DNA of 42,941 nucleotides. It comes from Planctomycetales bacterium. Its GTDB lineage: Bacteria; Planctomycetota; Phycisphaerae; SM23-33. The translations under genes were made by a program, and so were the position numbers. Position 1 is the first letter of the stretch. Each line of letters opens with the position of its first letter. Positions 8,003 through 42,453 of this stretch are shown here, piece by piece. Location of the stretch: positions 1 through 42,941 of the forward strand of contig JAUVIQ010000003.1 of assembly GCA_030592655.1 (NCBI GenBank), in the 5' to 3' direction. Below the pieces are notes generated by a model. The model had not been told where the DNA came from. It saw only the letters and a list, made by a program, of their open reading frames with translations, and did not search any database.

Positions 8003-8020
8003 GGCGTGGTCGCGGTGTTT
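8003..8020 (-). repeat. ACCGCGACCACGCC-family short repeat, copy 2 (inverted relative to copy 1)
   Basis: GGCGTGGTCGCGGTGTTT is the reverse complement of AAACACCGCGACCACGCC. Confidence 0.6.
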
Positions 8021-8063
8021 GGGCAACAGGCCCTGATTGGCGGTGGTATAACTCGGATAAAAT

Positions 8064-20193: not shown

Positions 20194-20271
20194 ACGTACC
20201 ACGGGCGTCTCGCCCGTGAATTCTGTGGCTTTTTCCTGCTTTTTCGCACGGGCGAGACGCCCGTGCTACGT
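20194..20271. repeat. REP doublet (REPIN-like)
   Basis: Two inverted copies of (GTAG/GTAC)CACGGGCGTCTCGCCCGTG at 20194-20218 and 20247-20271, 24/25 match. Each copy is itself palindromic with a GTAG-type foot. Confidence 0.75.
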
Positions 20272-33303: not shown

Positions 33304-33342
33304 CCGTGGCCGCAAACACCGCGACCACGCCACCGGCCACGG
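33304..33342. repeat. ACCGCGACCACGCC-family element in hairpin form
   Basis: CCGTGGCCG-caaacaccgcgaccacgccac-CGGCCACGG; sibling at 42172-42222. Confidence 0.7.
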
Positions 33343-36350: not shown

Positions 36351-36875
36351 ATGAACATCAGAAGCGTCTTATCTGTTTTCGCGTTGACCCTTTCATCCGT
36401 TCTGATTGGCGGGTGCGAGATGATCTTTTCCAAACCCGGAGCGCAACCTCCTGCCGCTGAAGTCGTTCCCGAACCAATCAACACGCTGCTACCGACGCAG
36501 ATTCGTATTCATCCGTTCACCGGAATGAGGGTCCTCTCTGAAAAAGGCAACATCAAGGGCATAGACGTCCGCATCGAGGCCATTGACGCCTTCGGCGACA
36601 CGAACAAGGCCTTCGGGCAGTTCCGCTTCGAGTTGTATCAATTCAAGCCCAACAGCCCCGACCCCAAGGGCGCCCGTCTGGCCGTCTGGAATGAGAACGT
36701 GGAAGACTTCGAGAGCAACCGCCGGCACTGGAGCAGTATCGCACGAACATACCAGTTCAAACTCGCCTGGAACCACCCGATACCCGTCGGGCAGAAATTC
36801 GTCCTGGTAACAGTCTTCCAGAGCCGATTCACCGAAAGACTCTTCGCCGAGCGAATGTTCGTGTCAGAACGGTAA
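36351..36875 (+). CDS. Hypothetical lipoprotein
   Basis: LIGGC lipobox; shares the IDAxGxxxKAxG motif with 32203-32868. Confidence 0.75.
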   Translation: MNIRSVLSVFALTLSSVLIGGCEMIFSKPGAQPPAAEVVPEPINTLLPTQIRIHPFTGMRVLSEKGNIKGIDVRIEAIDAFGDTNKAFGQFRFELYQFKPNSPDPKGARLAVWNENVEDFESNRRHWSSIARTYQFKLAWNHPIPVGQKFVLVTVFQSRFTERLFAERMFVSER

Positions 36876-36988
36876 CAATTGCCAATTGCCGATTTTCAAC
36901 CTGTCCCTTTGGGATTGCCAATTGAGAGAAACCTCGTCGCCTCTTTCTGTTTAATTTGTTCAATTGGCAATTGAAAATTGGAAATCAG
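36876..36988. repeat. AATTGCC 7-mer hairpin element with a 15-bp insertion (36900-36914)
   Basis: TTGCCAA-TTGCCGA-TTTTCAA-[CCTGTCCCTTTGGGA]-TTGCCAA ... CAATTGGCAATTGAAAATTGGAAATC, between convergent genes. Confidence 0.85.
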
Positions 36989-37521
36989 TTAGAGCGTTCG
37001 ATAGTCTCCATGACAATCTCGTGCACCTCATCCGGCTTGGCGACGACGTTCCAGACAACGGCCGGCGTGTTTTGCGAATCTGTCATGCAGTAGATGCTTG
37101 CGACTCCGACGAGTCGTTCTGCCACGCTCGCCGCCGGCACTGCCCGGCTTACGTCGGAAATCGCAGCGGCGGTTACACGGACGTGAATAAGCCCGCGAAC
37201 AGTTACGATTCGACGATTCGTCAGGACATAAGTCCTCCCCATCCACTGCCAGCACGCAACTGTTACGCGTCCCAACGCCCCAGCGGCGCAAATGCACCCG
37301 ATAGTCTCAACGGGCGTCCCGCTACGATAGATGTCCGCGATAAATGCGATGGCCCCGACAATAATCGCAGTAACCAGCCACGGCAGCGATGCCAGCAGAA
37401 CGAACCACCCGCTCGGCTTGATTGCAAGAATGATAATCTCACCGCCGCTCAACAGGTCGGCAGGAACGAGCAGGGCTGCAATGTCCGCTCGTTGCGATGT
37501 CGGTTCGGCAGAAGGTGTCAT
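36985..37521 (-). CDS. Membrane protein with bacterial PH (bPH_2-like) domain
   Basis: LLSGGEIII...KPS, two TM helices, then YVLTNRRI...RGLI and RLVGVASI...VAKP. Confidence 0.75.
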   Translation of the reverse strand: MTPSAEPTSQRADIAALLVPADLLSGGEIIILAIKPSGWFVLLASLPWLVTAIIVGAIAFIADIYRSGTPVETIGCICAAGALGRVTVACWQWMGRTYVLTNRRIVTVRGLIHVRVTAAAISDVSRAVPAASVAERLVGVASIYCMTDSQNTPAVVWNVVAKPDEVHEIVMETIERSN

Positions 37522-37606
37522 AGCAATAACTCTCGGCCACCAATGCCCAATGCCTAATACTACAACGAAACTTTACTTCTCACTGGTGGCGGTAACTGCT
37601 TGTTTT

Positions 37607-37697
37607 GTAATCAGTAATTGGTAATTAGTAATTGGTAATTGGTCAAAAAATGTTCTGATGCCCAGTTACGAATTACGAATTACTAATTACTGATTAC
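37607..37697. repeat. GTAATTG 7-mer tandem hairpin element
   Basis: GTAATCAGTAATTGGTAATTAGTAATTGGTAATTGG ... CCAGTTACGAATTACGAATTACTAATTACTGATTAC. Confidence 0.85.
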
Positions 37698-37865
37698 TCA
37701 TACGCGAAACGGTTTATCTGCGACGACCGAAGTTTCGTAGCAATACTAATGCCCAATGTCGCCGGATATGCTAACCTCTCACAACGAACGTTGCAACATA
37801 ACGAAAGCCGACTGGCGAACAGATTTTACAGGAGATACAATAGTTTCAGGATCAGGGATACTCTA

Positions 37866-38954
37866 ATGCACATAGTTCAATGCCCACATTGTCGGAGTAA
37901 CTTCAAGATTCCGGGGCCCGTAACGGACGCACGGATGAAGTGCAGCCGGTGCGGCTCGACCTTCGTCGGAACCAGTACGGAAAAAGCCGACGCGCCCGTC
38001 CCCCCTGTCCCGAGCAACGTCGAGGGCCCTGTCCCGAGCAACGTCGAAGGGCCTGCACCGAAACCACACCAGGCTGAACACGCGACAGCGCCGGGGCGCA
38101 CACGACGGAAAACTTCCACAAAATCCATAATCCTGTTAATCGTCGGCATCTTCGGGGTGCTCGGTATTGCCGTCATGCTTGCTATGGCGTATTACAGGCA
38201 GACCCATCCGATCTCTATCGAGCGTGACGCAAAAACGGGTAAAGTTATCGAGCGGGGAAGGGTTACGCAGGCAGAGGCGGAACGCAGGATAAAAAAACTT
38301 CGCACTTCGGCCGGCGACGAACGTGCCACACCGGGGACGAATGAGGGAGACAACCATCCCGACTCGCCGACGCAGGCAACTGAAGGCGACCCGAAACTCA
38401 AGGTCAATTGGAAAATCGTCAGGACCGGAGCCATCGAAACGACATATGTCTGCGGCAGCGTGCTTAATACATACGCCGCCCCGCAAAAACAGGTTACAGT
38501 TACCGCCTATATCAACGGCGTGCGCGGGCCCGGTAAAACCTACCGGTTCGTCCCGTCGGAAAAGGCGATCCGTTACAGCATTTGCCTGCGGGGACTACGC
38601 GCCACCGAAGATAACGTCAAGGTAGCGGCTACGGGTGAACCGGCGGATAGAGATACGATTGTCCTGTCCATCGAATCCGACCAGATGAACTACAGCGAAC
38701 AGAATGATAAAGCCGTCCGGACCGGAACCGTGCGCAACCGCTCGTCGGTACCGATAAAAGACGTCAAAATCTATTGTGATTTCTTCGATAGCGACGGTGT
38801 TCAGGGAAACGAGCAGGACGTGATCGGAAAACTGGTCTCGGTCAGGACGATCGGCGCTGGAAAAACAGCCCCCTTCCGCGTGGAATTTGACGCACTCGGC
38901 GCAACCGATTTATACAATACCGTCGTCGCCCGTGCGGTCGGGCTAAAATACTGA
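37866..38954 (+). CDS. Zinc-ribbon / single-TM protein with extracytoplasmic FxLYD-like Ig domains
   Basis: CPHC...CSRC zinc finger at the N-terminus (ATG 37866); Pro-rich linker; TM helix; GTVRNRS...VKIYCDFFDSDG...GKTAPF. Confidence 0.7.
   Translation: MHIVQCPHCRSNFKIPGPVTDARMKCSRCGSTFVGTSTEKADAPVPPVPSNVEGPVPSNVEGPAPKPHQAEHATAPGRTRRKTSTKSIILLIVGIFGVLGIAVMLAMAYYRQTHPISIERDAKTGKVIERGRVTQAEAERRIKKLRTSAGDERATPGTNEGDNHPDSPTQATEGDPKLKVNWKIVRTGAIETTYVCGSVLNTYAAPQKQVTVTAYINGVRGPGKTYRFVPSEKAIRYSICLRGLRATEDNVKVAATGEPADRDTIVLSIESDQMNYSEQNDKAVRTGTVRNRSSVPIKDVKIYCDFFDSDGVQGNEQDVIGKLVSVRTIGAGKTAPFRVEFDALGATDLYNTVVARAVGLKY
38004..38051 (+). repeat. In-frame 24-bp tandem duplication (PVPSNVEG x2)
   Basis: CCTGTCCCGAGCAACGTCGAGGGC followed by CCTGTCCCGAGCAACGTCGAAGGG. 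Confidence 0.85.
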
Positions 38955-38959
38955 TAAAT

Positions 38960-39012
38960 AGCGATCAGCAATCAGCGATCAGCAATCAGTAAAAAACTGA
39001 ATGCTGATTGCT
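38960..39012. repeat. AGC(G/A)ATC 7-mer tandem hairpin element (short right arm)
   Basis: AGCGATCAGCAATCAGCGATCAGCAATCAG ... CTGAATGCTGATTGCT. Confidence 0.75.
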
Positions 39013-39029
39013 TTTTAGAAAGAAACGGA

Positions 39030-40208
39030 ATGATTCCAATCGGAACTGACAGGCGGCTCAAGCATAGGCCTTGGATTAATTACGCACTTGTGGCTGCCAA
39101 CATATTCGTTTTTATCGTCCTCCAGCAGACGCGGTCGGACACGCCGGGGGTAAGGGCTTACCTCCTCTGGCCCGACCAACCAGAGGTCTATCAATTCTTC
39201 TCAAGCATGTTCATGCACGCCGGGTGGATGCACCTCATCGGAAACATGATTTTCCTGTGGGTTTTCGGTAACGCGGTCAACGACTCCCTCGGAAACGTCG
39301 GATACCTGGCGTTTTACCTTGCCGGCGGGGTCATCGCGGGCGTCGGGTACGTCCTGCTGGCGGGCACAGCCCCGGTGCTGGGAGCGTCGGGCGCCATCTC
39401 GGCAGTTACAGGAGCGTTCCTGGTCCTCTTTCCTCGCGTACGCGTAACCGTGCTGCTCATTTTCTACATAATCATGCCGATCGAAATCTCCAGCCTGTTC
39501 TTTCTACTGATGCAATTCGGATGGAACCTGTACGCTACACTTAGCCAGGCTGGCGGAGGCGTCGCGTACGTGGCGCATTCCAGCGGATACGCATTCGGCA
39601 TCATCGTTGCTGCCGGTTTCCTGGCCATTAAAGTCCTTCCGAGAGAACCATACGATTTACTCAGCCTGTTCCAGTCATGGCATCGCAAACACGGTTATAA
39701 CCAGACAGTCTCCGACGGATACGACCCGTTCAGCCGGACTCGCCCCGGGCGACACAGTGGAGGGCGAAGGTGGGTCAACGCCAGGCCAGTCTCGGCCGGA
39801 ACGCCCGAAGGACCGCCGGCTGAAGAACTGGAATTGCGGAAACAAATTTCCAGCGACCACGCCAGGCACGACTTCGCAGCCGCTGCGGACGGATATGTCA
39901 AACTACTCAAAGTCGCCGACGACGCACTCCTTCCGATGAACCAGCAACTGGACGTTTCCAACCACTTCATGTCCGCACAACAGTACCCCCAAGCCGCTGA
40001 CGCCTACGAACTTTTCATCAAACATTACGGAAATTACGAATACATAGGCGACATCAGGCTGATGCTGGGACTGATCTATAGCCGATATTTACACCAGGAC
40101 GAAAAGGCCCAAACGTATCTCTCTTCAGCCGTTGCGGACCTGTTCGACAAGAACAAAATTGAACTGGCCCGTAACGAATTGGCCGAGGTGCGCAAGCGGC
40201 TCGGATAA
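39030..40208 (+). CDS. Rhomboid-family intramembrane serine protease with C-terminal TPR-like domain
   Basis: SMFMHAGWMHLIGNM, GASG (catalytic Ser), AYVAH (catalytic His); helical TPR-like tail. Confidence 0.92.
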   Translation: MIPIGTDRRLKHRPWINYALVAANIFVFIVLQQTRSDTPGVRAYLLWPDQPEVYQFFSSMFMHAGWMHLIGNMIFLWVFGNAVNDSLGNVGYLAFYLAGGVIAGVGYVLLAGTAPVLGASGAISAVTGAFLVLFPRVRVTVLLIFYIIMPIEISSLFFLLMQFGWNLYATLSQAGGGVAYVAHSSGYAFGIIVAAGFLAIKVLPREPYDLLSLFQSWHRKHGYNQTVSDGYDPFSRTRPGRHSGGRRWVNARPVSAGTPEGPPAEELELRKQISSDHARHDFAAAADGYVKLLKVADDALLPMNQQLDVSNHFMSAQQYPQAADAYELFIKHYGNYEYIGDIRLMLGLIYSRYLHQDEKAQTYLSSAVADLFDKNKIELARNELAEVRKRLG

Positions 40209-40232
40209 GACGGATCGAAGAACGGTGCACGG

Positions 40233-40982
40233 ATGACACTTGCCCAGACCACACACGCCGAACAGGCCGGTAAAGGATTGATGTCGTTATTCGACGGGCT
40301 GTTGCATCTGAACTTCCCCACCCGCGAAGAGTTCGTCGTCTTTCTGGAATCCCTGACCACGCTCCAGGCCGCCGCCGTCGTCGCCATCGGGATATGGTAC
40401 ATATTTTACGGGCATAAATACTTCAAGGCTATGGTCGTTATCAACGGTATCGGTTTCGGCGCACTGATTGGGTTCTACATCGGGCAAACTTTTATGTCAG
40501 GCTCGCCGAAGACGCCGCTGCTGATGACGCTGGGAGGTGCGGCATTACTCGGCGCGGTGGCCTGGCCCATGATTAAATACGCCGTCGGAATTATGGGAGC
40601 GCTGGCCGGCGGACTAATCGGATATGCCGGATGGCACCTCATCACCACAGCCATCGGTAACGACGCGATGCAGCAACACGCATGGACCGGCGGGGTCATC
40701 GGAATGGTCGTCTTCGGAATGATCGCGTTCGTGGTCTTCCGCGTGTCGGTAATGGCCTTTACTTCCCTCCAGGGCGCGATTATGACAACCGGGGGAATAA
40801 TTTCACTACTCCTGTCCAATGCTTCAATGAGCGAATCCATCAGACCTGATCTGGTCGGAAATAAATTGCTGCTGATCATCCTCCTCGGCGTCCCCGCAGC
40901 CATCGGATTCGCCGTCCAGTACGCCACGGACGCAGCCGCGACCAGCAAAAAACGCAAAGCCACCGAAAAACCTCCTGTCTGA
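40233..40982 (+). CDS. Multi-pass membrane protein (DUF4203 / TM7S3-like)
   Basis: ~7 Gly-rich TM helices; FYGHKYFK and TSLQGA motifs. Confidence 0.6.
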   Translation: MTLAQTTHAEQAGKGLMSLFDGLLHLNFPTREEFVVFLESLTTLQAAAVVAIGIWYIFYGHKYFKAMVVINGIGFGALIGFYIGQTFMSGSPKTPLLMTLGGAALLGAVAWPMIKYAVGIMGALAGGLIGYAGWHLITTAIGNDAMQQHAWTGGVIGMVVFGMIAFVVFRVSVMAFTSLQGAIMTTGGIISLLLSNASMSESIRPDLVGNKLLLIILLGVPAAIGFAVQYATDAAATSKKRKATEKPPV

Positions 40983-41111
40983 ATTGCCAATCCCAAGGGG
41001 ACAGGTTGCCAATTGCCGATTTCCAATTGAAACAACGGAAACAAAAATATGGCAAATGGCCGTGAACATGGTCTCCGTCACCATATTTACCATATTTCCC
41101 ACCATATTTCC
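40982..41111. repeat. AATTGCC 7-mer tract with a 15-bp insertion (40991-41005), followed by an ATATGG/CCATAT hairpin tract
   Basis: TTGCCAA-[TCCCAAGGGGACAGG]-TTGCCAA-TTGCCGA-TTTCCAA, then AAATATGG... / (CCATATTT)x3. Confidence 0.75.
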
Positions 41112-41119
41112 GCGGCTTC

Positions 41120-42037
41120 CTACGGTGCCCGTTCTGTTCCTAAATCCGCAGGATCAACCGTGCCGTAGTGAAATACGACTGCAAGATAAGAGCCTTCGTC
41201 GTCATTGCGCTGAAAAGAGCAGATCGTGCCGGGACGCTCATTTCCAGGAATCACAGGTTGAACGGTAACAGCTTCCCGCCGAAGGCGCCCGTCTTCATCC
41301 TTCATCCCAGAAAGGACAGCCTCCGCGTTGACCCAGGCGTTACCATCTCGGCTGGTAATACGCGCTAGGATGTTACCGCTGTTCAATGTCTTACCGAGCG
41401 ACTTGGGGTCCGGACCCAGTTCGATCCATCTGCCGGTGCCCAAATCCTCACAGCCCACAGCGTGGAAGCCGGCCAACCATTTGACCGCCCAGTCGGGCAG
41501 GTCGGTCGGCCAGCCTTGACGAGTGCTGGATCTTCCATGCACCAGAACCGCGCGGGCGAAGATCGGGGGAGGTGCCCGATCCTCCCATCCCAAGCGAACG
41601 GCAATGGCGTCTCTTCCAGATAGGTGAATGAACCTCCTCTGGTTGACGCCTGGCCCCAGCGTGATGATTTTGCTGGAGCAGGAAACGCGCGAAGACGCTT
41701 CCACGACGACCTGACCGTCCTTACGCCTTTCGAGGACTCGGCAGGATACAATCTCCCTGACTGTAACCAGCAACCAGTACTCGTCAACTGTCGGAAGTTC
41801 CTGCCAAACGCCGACAGCATGAACTACGAGCCCCAGCGAGCCCGCCTCGTCCGATACCCACTTTGGCGAATCAACTCGCGCCGCGTTTGAACTGGTTTCG
41901 CCGACCCATACATACGCAGCCGTAACGAGCAACGACTCCGCGTTTGCCTCACGCTCGCCAACCGAAGCATTTCCCGAGCAGCCTGCGGACAAGGCTATCA
42001 AAACGACAGCAAGAACGATCTGTATTCTTTGGACCAT
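41120..42037 (-). CDS. Hypothetical lipoprotein
   Basis: MVQRIQIVLAVVLIALSAGC lipobox; no family recognised. Confidence 0.65.
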   Translation of the reverse strand: MVQRIQIVLAVVLIALSAGCSGNASVGEREANAESLLVTAAYVWVGETSSNAARVDSPKWVSDEAGSLGLVVHAVGVWQELPTVDEYWLLVTVREIVSCRVLERRKDGQVVVEASSRVSCSSKIITLGPGVNQRRFIHLSGRDAIAVRLGWEDRAPPPIFARAVLVHGRSSTRQGWPTDLPDWAVKWLAGFHAVGCEDLGTGRWIELGPDPKSLGKTLNSGNILARITSRDGNAWVNAEAVLSGMKDEDGRLRREAVTVQPVIPGNERPGTICSFQRNDDEGSYLAVVFHYGTVDPADLGTERAP

Positions 42038-42070
42038 TTGCGTTTTCTTTGTTATCGCTCCACTACAATA

Positions 42071-42098
42071 AATAGACGTCTATCGGCCTTAAAAGTTC
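42071..42098 (-). promoter_or_regulatory. Putative ECF sigma-factor promoter
   Basis: (G)GAACTTTT-N12-CGTCTATT, with boxes and spacing identical to 201-228. Confidence 0.6.
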
Positions 42099-42171
42099 CT
42101 ACGATTGCGAAAAATAACTCACGCGCTGCTTTATAGCAGTTCACGAATAACTATACACCATGCGCCGGGTA

Positions 42172-42222
42172 CCGTGGCCGCCCCAAAGGGGCAGGCAAAC
42201 ACCGCGACCACGCCACCAGCCA
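42172..42222. repeat. ACCGCGACCACGCC-family element carrying a 15-bp insertion (42181-42195)
   Basis: CCGTGGCCG[CCCCAAAGGGGCAGG]CAAACACCGCGACCACGCCACC versus the empty copy at 33304. Confidence 0.8.
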
Positions 42223-42453
42223 TTATTCGGTCCGTCTTGACCGGACTTCGCGGACCGCCGACAGGATGTCTGATGTTGCCGCTTTGGTCTTTACGCCGGC
42301 GACATCAAAGGGCGATCCGGTCCGGCGCTGAGGCACCACTGCGAACACCTCCCCGCCGCGTCTGCGGATCACAACCCGTTCGGCCTTGGCGCGATTCAGG
42401 ACCTGCGACAGATTCTGCCTTGCTTGTGAGTACGTATAGACTTTCATGTTCAC
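42223..42453 (-). CDS. Phd/YefM-family antitoxin
   Basis: YTYSQARQNLSQVLNRA...VVIRRRGGEVFAVVP. Confidence 0.85.
   Translation of the reverse strand: MNMKVYTYSQARQNLSQVLNRAKAERVVIRRRGGEVFAVVPQRRTGSPFDVAGVKTKAATSDILSAVREVRSRRTE

Follow-up and report, generated by a model that had tools for sequence, protein, structure and literature searches.

A 15-nucleotide hairpin module inserted into palindromic repeats, heptamer arrays and genes of a Planctomycetota bacterium

The window analysed here, 42,941 nucleotides (nt) of contig JAUVIQ010000003.1 from a Planctomycetales bacterium of the class Phycisphaerae, contains three copies of a 15-nt module in which a CCTG foot is followed by a 4-bp YCCC/GGGR stem enclosing a free 3-nt loop (CCTG-YCCC-NNN-GGGR). 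The source assembly, G000, is a metagenome-assembled genome (MAG) that comprises 2.86 Mb in 275 contigs with 55.7% G+C, the window being its contig C70. In at least three separate lineages the module has entered new sites again and again, each time precisely and as exactly 15 nt; these sites lie at the exposed ends of DNA hairpins that were already in place, at the centres of palindromes and in two genes. A preliminary description, made from the window alone, had proposed a very small mobile insertion defined by its structure, and the three copies were found at the positions and on the strands that it gave (Table 1). No fourth match was present in the window with up to two mismatches allowed. 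Because one of 100 shuffles also gave three matches, the window by itself is merely suggestive.

Copies 1 and 2 interrupt heptamer arrays of the AATTGCC type, both at a CAA^TTG step (the caret marking the point of insertion) and in opposite orientations on the plus strand; because CAATTG is palindromic, both meet identical 5'-CAA / TTG-3' flanks. No target duplication accompanies either copy beyond a 1-nt ambiguity, and with that qualification the preliminary account of these two insertions holds. Copy 3 fills a palindromic repeat, repeat A, which is identical to an empty paralog on the same strand save for exactly the 15 nt of the copy; such an empty repeat had been pointed out near position 33304. 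When the window was searched with Rfam 15 at the gathering score, only two tRNAs away from the three sites were matched, and a permissive scan of 36700–42400 returned nothing at the module sites.

The predicted DNA fold of the 113 nt around copy 1 (−20.2 kcal/mol, z −3.88) joins the two inverted arrays into a long hairpin from which the module projects as a side hairpin, with CCTG unpaired at a three-way junction. The empty paralog of repeat A is predicted to fold as a clean hairpin (z −3.28).

The preliminary description had also listed related inserts of 24 and about 30 bp. The 24-nt form, which has the foot and stem of the module with a 12-nt loop, is present as a tandem pair and at three further loci; the longer form was not found in the window. 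The open reading frame (ORF) that holds the 24-nt pair has a weak zinc-ribbon match and, beyond its first ~100 nt, no counterpart between the conserved neighbours in two same-genus genomes, G001 and G003.

Table 1 Module copies, host repeats and related features of the window
Feature	Position	Strand	Description
Module copy 1	36900..36914	+	CCTG foot, TCCC/GGGA stem, TTT loop
Module copy 2	40991..41005	-	TCCC/GGGA stem, CTT loop
Module copy 3	42181..42195	-	CCCC/GGGG stem, TTT loop
5' heptamer array, host of copy 1	36876..36924	+	AATTGCC type, broken at CAA^TTG 10 nt before the array end
Inverted partner array	36961..36986	+	Pairs with the 5' array to give a long hairpin between convergent genes, the module being a side hairpin
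Heptamer array, host of copy 2	40983..41029		Directly 3' of the stop codon of gene 40233-40982
Repeat A, filled by copy 3	42173..42217	-	GGTGGC-GTGGTCG-CGGTGTTTG-(15 nt)-CGGCCACG
Repeat A, empty paralog	33305..33334	-	Same arms and loop without the 15 nt
Repeat A, left half	8003..8021	+	Degenerate, right arm unrecognisable, without module
Repeat B, empty inverted pair	20200..20269		CACGGGCG-AGA-CGCCCGTG then CTAC; doublet of GTAG-tagged repetitive extragenic palindromes (REPs)
24-nt variant, tandem pair	38004..38051	+	CCTG-TCCC-12-nt loop-GGGC, inside ORF 37749-38954

The module as a discrete insert across the genome

The free-loop pattern CCTGYCCCNNNGGGR occurs 45 times in G000 and the exact pattern 12 times; for the former, Markov models of order 1, 3 and 5 predict 1.84, 1.52 and 1.72 occurrences, and a reversed-pattern control gives 2. 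Among the tetranucleotides that precede the 1894 NCCCNNNGGGN sites on both strands, CCTG ranks first (53), followed by GACG (40) and TTCG (37). The CCTG foot alone is a moderate signal, and the full combination of foot and stem is a strong one.

Host families were searched in G000 by their two arms with a variable gap between them. Family A (arms GTGGTCGCGGTGTTTG^CGRCCACG) gave 17 matches with a gap of 0 nt, five with a gap of 15 nt and one with a gap of 16 nt. For gaps of 0 nt, 15 nt and other lengths, the corresponding numbers were 36, 6 and 4 in family B, a GTAG-type REP that often forms inverted pairs (CACGGGCGAGA^CGCCCGTG, then CTAC); 5, 4 and 1 in family C (GCCTCGCTGAAG^CGAGCAC); 14, 2 and 0 in family D, a perfect palindrome counted on both strands (CCAGCCATTCGAA^TGGCTGG); and 8, 1 and 0 in family G (GGCCAATCTTCCGCTK^CGCTCCAGATTGACC). 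Repeat B, empty in the window, thus serves as a module host at other sites of the genome. When these five unrelated families were pooled, the gap was 0 nt in 80 matches, 15 nt in 18 and of another length in 6, and all 18 of the 15-nt gaps were the module with at most one mismatch. A motif-blind scan for pairs of 12-mers that are contiguous at one site and split by 5-60 nt at another returned 29 non-periodic 15-bp events, 12 of which contain the module; the remaining events were mostly plain tandem duplications, and one, on C98, was a similar hairpin with another foot.

These counts bear on the proposal that the module is a variant tip of REP families, or else one end of a larger mobile element or what such an element left behind at these sites. 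In its favour, the sequence that several filled copies of repeat A have in common extends past the repeat itself, so that filled REPs multiply as units, and repeat G is the cognate REP of a REP-associated tyrosine transposase (RAYT), with which it forms a REPtron on C232. However, the same 15 nt recur in at least five unrelated families, at 13 uniquely flanked array loci and in two genes, with other hosts again in the genomes G006 and G258 described below; the gap lengths are 0 or 15 nt and form no spectrum; and no longer insert starting with the module was found after any host-family arm within 8 kb. We regard this origin as very improbable.

Conservation was read from the 18 copies defined by their hosts, with no motif presupposed. 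Their foot is conserved at 71 of 72 positions (CCTG in 17, CTTG in one) and the three invariant stem pairs at 106 of 108, and the loop is free, its successive positions reading C6/T9/G3, T11/A7 and G15/T2/A1. The closing pair of the stem is TA in 8, CG in 5, TG in 4 and CA in one of these copies; the counts are TA 22, CG 15, TG 8 and CA 0 among the G000 copies and, in a tally of match rows, TA 57, CG 12, TG 6 and CA 6 in G258. The closing pair covaries, and the compensatory T-A to C-G change noticed in the preliminary description is real and general; the covariation rests on the closing pair only, the other three stem pairs being invariant and so uninformative. With foot and stem conserved and the loop free, the module forms a very small family defined by sequence and structure together, as had been proposed. 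Strand-specific G-T wobble, considered as proof of a folded single strand, was dropped, since the ratio of eight TG to no CA holds in G000 but not in G003, G006 or G258.

Other small inserts and hairpins were noted in the same genome. At C26:644 and C193:77 a 27-nt insert (starting CGTTCGCC and ending GGGA) occupies exactly the position in the family-B REP loop that the 15-mer takes in other copies. Nine copies of family C are clear, with an exact GCCTCGCT core; each follows a CAT, which places it immediately 5' of an ATG read on the opposite strand (for example C6:5435, C53:787/823, C149:9589, C185:1850/1914 and C266:7572/7647); with GAGG in its 3' arm, the family has the appearance of a hairpin that recurs over the ribosome-binding site. 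An 18-nt family of mini-inserts follows the same plan as the module. It has 18-21 copies in G000, with a CCACG foot, a 5-bp GGACC/GGTCC stem and a 3-nt loop, and is inserted in heptamer arrays of the GATTGCG and CGGTATT types, where 2-3 nt are identical across the junction (C126:8098, C184:26989, C227:3976, C268:12254, C56:200, C75:6040 and C266:8839).

Insertion sites, junctions and orthologous loci

The 45 copies were sorted into site classes by hand from a listing of their flanks. Heptamer arrays of the AATTGCC/AATTTCC kind hold 13 copies, always at a CAA^TTN step and mostly 10 or 17 nt before the terminal CAATTG; 17 lie in families A, B, C, D and G, three at GCGAAAC^CGCAAAC sites (in uvrA and as a tandem double copy on C234), two in other short-period arrays and ten elsewhere. 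Among the recipients are the loops of five or more REP-like families, a palindrome resembling a terminator, a hairpin that lies immediately before start codons, CAA^TTG centres and, occasionally and in frame, protein-coding genes. An outer stem of at least 8 bp surrounds the insert in 11 of the 45 copies, compared with 34 of 5000 random positions, and the orientation is fixed wherever the host is asymmetric.

The junctions in G000 follow a simple rule. A purine stands immediately 5' of the insert in 42 of 45 copies, and in 38 of 45 the insert ends with the same base that precedes it, copies ending in A lying at A^ sites and those ending in G at G^ sites; the 3' flank mostly begins with YG. The 5' flanks are otherwise varied (TTTG, GAGA, GAAG, CGAA, TCAA, AAAC), with only position -1 constrained and positions -2 to -6 variable.

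Identity between the end of the insert and its 5' flank is what leave-and-return copying predicts, and the main rival explanation is template switching, or gene conversion, between extruded hairpins with no dedicated machinery: a nascent strand would leave a hairpin tip, copy the module from a filled hairpin and return through 1-2 nt of microhomology. Also in keeping with it, all hosts are hairpins or palindromes, no enzyme has been linked to the module, and in G003 the two loops match in all four close inverted pairs of filled repeats. However, one nucleotide of homology is very little for repeated, precise events in at least eight unrelated hosts and two genes, and the junction rule fails in the REP of G006, a genome of the sister genus, where one filled copy out of 10 obeys it. 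Foot and stem, moreover, are kept across genera and in another family while the loop drifts, which argues for recognition by something, and the distribution described below is patchy and burst-like, as would not be expected from a general replication error. On balance we consider template switching improbable.

The same-genus genomes G001-G005 were searched with the DNA flanking individual copies, and the hits were aligned. At the site of copy 1 (36900) the array is present without the module in G001 and G005 and collapsed in G003, and no array exists in G002 and G004; at the site of copy 2 (40991) the array of G001 is empty, and that of G003 carries other small hairpin inserts at CAA^TTT steps. 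G005 has an empty array where that of C177 is filled. On C95 the module lies in a terminator-like palindrome downstream of a tRNA gene, which is empty in G002 and contains a different hairpin, without the module, in G003. The family-C site on C149 corresponds in G002 to a related hairpin at the identical position, its foot being a different one (GAAAG-CCCC-GTT-GGGG). Synteny around the copy on C24 is broken in all relatives, which makes that site uninformative. In every informative case the orthologous site is empty of the module. A filled family-A repeat beside the locus of copy 2 is common to G001 and G003, and in G003 the foot and the stem of its module have both decayed (CCCGTCTCTTGGGGG). 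Such decay disfavours strong selection in place and is what a parasite, and not a selected site, would be expected to show.

Genes provide further sites. On C229 a copy lies in uvrA, between the regions encoding the Pfam domains UvrA_inter and UvrA_DNA-bind, where it encodes LSRGG as part of a 30-nt in-frame insertion that is absent from G002, G003 and G005. At exactly the point of the module, uvrA of G004 (L056) has its own, different 15-nt in-frame insert, CTCGCCCGACGAGGA, and the linker of UvrA is a recurrent landing site. The best named relative of the G000 UvrA, from a Phycisphaerae MAG, is 73% identical, in line with the placement of the organism in this class of Planctomycetota. A copy on C227 lies in a GHMP-kinase gene, with a net gain of 12 nt including the module that is absent from five of five orthologs. 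These two genes bear out the suggestion that the module can enter genes without a frameshift. A candidate genic insertion, on C174, is in a Type ISP restriction-modification gene, at a site that no ortholog in the genus covers.

The near-invariance of foot and stem beside a free loop, the presence of the same core in distant genomes and the location of copies in hairpins that are probably functional (the terminator-like palindrome after the tRNA gene, the start-codon hairpin) could also be explained if the module were kept as useful, as a protein-binding or processing site or a hairpin cap, and were spread by selection and not by parasitism. We find this unlikely, a little more so than template switching. 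Most host-family copies do without the module (80 empty against 18 filled matches), the orthologous sites of close relatives are empty and one G003 copy is decaying; the module also occurs within coding sequence, and a mechanism of insertion would still be needed. Its orientation relative to flanking genes is mixed, on a crude ORF map that is too noisy to use.

Taken together, a genome-wide excess over the Markov background, clean presence or absence of 15 nt both between paralogous repeats and at orthologous loci, and the absence of any longer REP or insertion sequence (IS) end around the module in its unrelated hosts were found for all three points on which the preliminary description had staked its proposal.

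Distribution and the search for a mobilising enzyme

The survey covered 30 relatives and 300 further Planctomycetota genomes, each with its reversed-pattern control. Among same-genus genomes, 25 copies were counted in G001, 23 in G002 and 40 in G003 (control 1 in each), and much lower numbers in G005 (10, control 1) and G004 (4, control 0). The sister-genus genome G006 has 77 copies (control 2), and G026, an outlier of the same class, 13 (control 2); the other genomes among the 30 relatives are near their controls. Nearly all of the 300 further genomes are at background, with the exception of G258, from another family of the phylum, which has 81 copies against 7 in its control. The G258 copies have the same foot and a TCCC/GGGA stem with an almost random loop, and the module there lies within a slightly longer two-tier hairpin and is often clustered.

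Hosts in G006 are GATTGCG arrays and a CTAC-tagged REP of its own. Of 35 matches to this REP, 22 are empty (loop TTAC or TCAC), 10 are filled in mid-loop by exactly 15 nt and three are unrelated. Two loop variants, GTT and CAA, dominate in G006; loops are thus inherited, as expected for templated copies.

Close inverted pairs of filled repeats were noted in two genomes. In G003 the loop is the same within each of four pairs and differs between pairs (C8:69027/69076, C11:19462/19511, C45:41800/41849 and C47:30619/30674), which suggests that the members of a pair are made alike locally, by symmetrisation or by inverted duplication; the loops of such pairs mostly differ in G006.

We lean towards the reading that the module is a discrete, non-coding and non-autonomous 15-nt insertion element, made of a foot and a mini-hairpin and similar in kind to REPs and to the small dispersed repeats (SDRs) of Nostocaceae. 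New copies would be templated from old ones, since loop variants run in lineages, and only the foot and stem would matter for propagation. Copying may happen while replication or repair leaves the DNA single-stranded and folded, and in G000 it would use a single matching nucleotide, the element ending in the same base that stands immediately 5' of the target (R^YG). Mobilisation would occur in trans, through a putative factor that recognises the CCTG foot and mini-hairpin.

A candidate for such a factor was sought among Y1 transposases and reverse transcriptases. G000 has five Y1 genes (L001-L005), which by motif naming we take to be one IS200-like and four RayT-like. L005 (C232:20756-23980) is a classical REPtron with family-G repeats on both sides. 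L002 (C174), L003 (C272) and L004 (C119) are bounded by long terminal inverted repeats (TIRs; TAGGGACAGNCACCTATTTTT or ATTTAATTGGGGGACACC...) that also occur elsewhere without the gene, an arrangement that matches the 'TIRYT' named in PMC3733652. The TIRs of L003 and L004 start with TAGGGACAG and have 8 nt in common with the complement of the foot and half-stem of the module. The RAYT L004 was rejected as mobiliser, its closest homologs (60-66% identity) lying in the motif-poor genomes G013, G016, G019, G023 and G024; the total count of Y1 genes was likewise rejected as a correlate of module load, to which it bears no relation. Pfam RVT_1 had no match in G000-G007 (completeness 69-96%), other reverse transcriptase families lying outside the search, and a reverse-transcriptase route is not supported.

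Several observations weigh against the favoured reading. No mobilising enzyme was found among the Y1/RAYT and RVT_1 candidates examined. The module was found within 1.2 kb of none of the five Y1 genes of G000; Pfam Y1_Tnp occurs in 30 of 31 genomes in numbers that do not track the module (five genes and no copies in G010, eight genes and four copies in G004); and in the motif-rich genomes G001-G003 and G006 homologs of L004 reach at most 55% identity. The HUH/RAYT connection offered in the preliminary description is not supported by these observations. Part of the copy number reflects host repeats that multiplied after insertion, as on C38 and C92, which share flank beyond repeat A, and at least one of the 45 copies, on C183, is a chance match, because it lies in conserved coding sequence without an indel. 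The failure of the junction rule in G006 counts here as well. The excess of TG over CA closing pairs is not repeated in the other genomes tallied (row tallies of 3:2 in G003, 1:4 in G006 and 6:6 in G258), and the mini-hairpin on its own is hardly stable as DNA (predicted z −0.19). As for current mobility, assembled Logan contigs of four sequencing runs were consulted. A contig of run X1 spans 36808-37210 with no differences, so copy 1 is present; an event lacking the 15 nt is listed at none of the three window sites in these assembled contigs, which drop rare variants, and with no new insertion or empty allele seen in them current mobility is unproven.

A bolder form of the trans-mobilised reading, which we hold to be doubtful, is that the module is the smallest self-defined mobile DNA, a 15-nt unit cut-and-pasted or copied into single-stranded hairpin tips by an unrecognised Planctomycetota protein that reads CCTG and a 4-bp stem. 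If true, this would amount to strand transfer of a new kind, unlike RAYT/IS200 systems and not based on reverse transcription, that would also remodel proteins in frame.

Relation to known small repeats

The SDRs of Nostocaceae are the closest described counterpart. SDR1-8 of Nostoc and its relatives, reportedly set out by Elhai et al. in 2008 (Genome Res 18:1484), are said to be dispersed repeats of about 20-27 nt that form hairpins with compensatory changes, occur as nested or tandem copies and are restricted to a subgroup of genomes; an RNA intermediate is said to have been proposed for them in the same work. We know of no enzyme for SDRs. The module resembles them in occupying heptamer arrays, repeat families and palindromes, in the proportions given above, and in the compensatory change of the closing pair of its hairpin. 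It differs in being exactly 15 nt long, a 24-nt variant notwithstanding, in residing in Phycisphaerae and not Nostocaceae, and in its demonstrated in-frame insertions into genes; it is not known to be related to SDRs in sequence, and the lack of an RVT_1 match in its clade (G000-G007) contrasts with the RNA intermediate reportedly proposed for SDRs. SDRs are regarded as mobile. SDR5 lies in the centre of the HIP1 palindrome (PMC5861425), and a size of some 20 bp is given in PMC2884548; the SDR work is also cited in PMC3116915.

REPs are palindromes tagged by a tetranucleotide, GTAG or CGTC, in Di Nocera et al. 2013 (PMC3733652), where they are also placed within other small palindromes and in uvrA and other repair genes of other phyla; REPINs and RAYTs are treated in Bertels & Rainey 2011 (PMC3116915). 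The module shares with REPs a tetranucleotide beside a small GC-rich stem-loop and a high copy number, REPs forming several families per genome, and G000 itself carries true GTAG-type REPs and RayT-like genes. In contrast to REPs, its foot is CCTG, its 15 nt contain a 4-bp stem where REPs are imperfect palindromes of 20-40 nt, it is a passenger inside REPs and not a part of REPIN doublets, and it flanks none of the five Y1 genes, whose surroundings bear other repeats or TIRs.

Elements of the IS200/IS605 family have ends that consist of a hairpin and a 5' guide tetranucleotide and move as single strands by 'peel and paste'. The 4-nt single-stranded foot 5' of a hairpin, the fixed orientation in asymmetric hosts, the lack of target duplication and the preference for potentially single-stranded places recall these elements. 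They insert, however, 3' of one conserved tetra- or pentanucleotide, whereas the 5' flanks of the module vary, and they have two different ends and a transposase gene, whereas the module is one hairpin with no gene. Miniature inverted-repeat transposable elements measure 70-300 bp, with TIRs of 15-30 bp and a target-site duplication, as against 15 nt, no TIRs beyond the 4-bp stem and a junction repeat of at most 1 nt. Rickettsia palindromic elements are about 100-150 bp long. Like the module they are palindromic repeats found in frame inside genes; unlike it they are much longer and CGTC-tagged, and they occur in an obligate intracellular lineage. The genes that contain them are probably still functional according to PMC3733652, which also gives their palindromic nature and CGTC tag.

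We therefore file the module closest to the SDRs of Nostocaceae, as a member, smaller than any described so far and in a new phylum, of a known and mechanistically unsolved kind and not as a wholly new class. The literature searched contained no CCTG-tagged 15-nt element and no SDR-like elements in Planctomycetota; the supplementary lists of Planctomycetes REP families in PMC3733652 lay outside this search and may already catalogue the host repeats. The preliminary claim to an undescribed system thus needs qualification, given the SDRs of heptamer arrays and palindromes and the REPs known from palindromes and uvrA.

Found in the genome of a sediment bacterium and copied into dozens of places, the module is among the smallest insertion elements seen. 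How REPs and SDRs enter new places is an old unsolved question, and in most families single events are obscured by excessive length, degeneracy or uniformity. The module offers a minimal unit with exact borders, empty and filled copies side by side and separate lineages with different hosts, and a clean 0-or-15-nt readout that suits population sequencing, phyletic profiling and oligonucleotide assays. It also illustrates that such nano-units can lengthen proteins in frame, by five residues in the UvrA linker and by an insert in the GHMP kinase. Heptamer arrays coupled with nano-inserts, as in Nostoc, are now seen in a second phylum, and a common cause may lie behind both.

Heptamer arrays as such are abundant in G000 (AATTGCC, AATTACG/AATTACC, GATTGCG, TAGGGAC, CGGTATT and others) and often occur as two inverted arrays around a short unique intergenic spacer, giving long hairpins; examples lie at 36876-36986, 37604-37700 and 40983-41029 of the window and on C111, C116, C171, C180, C184 and C236. 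For the AATTACC-type pair at 37604-37700, BLAST returned 51 rows in G000, 49 of them outside the window, and dozens in every same-genus genome; the pair also has miRNA-like Rfam matches below threshold.

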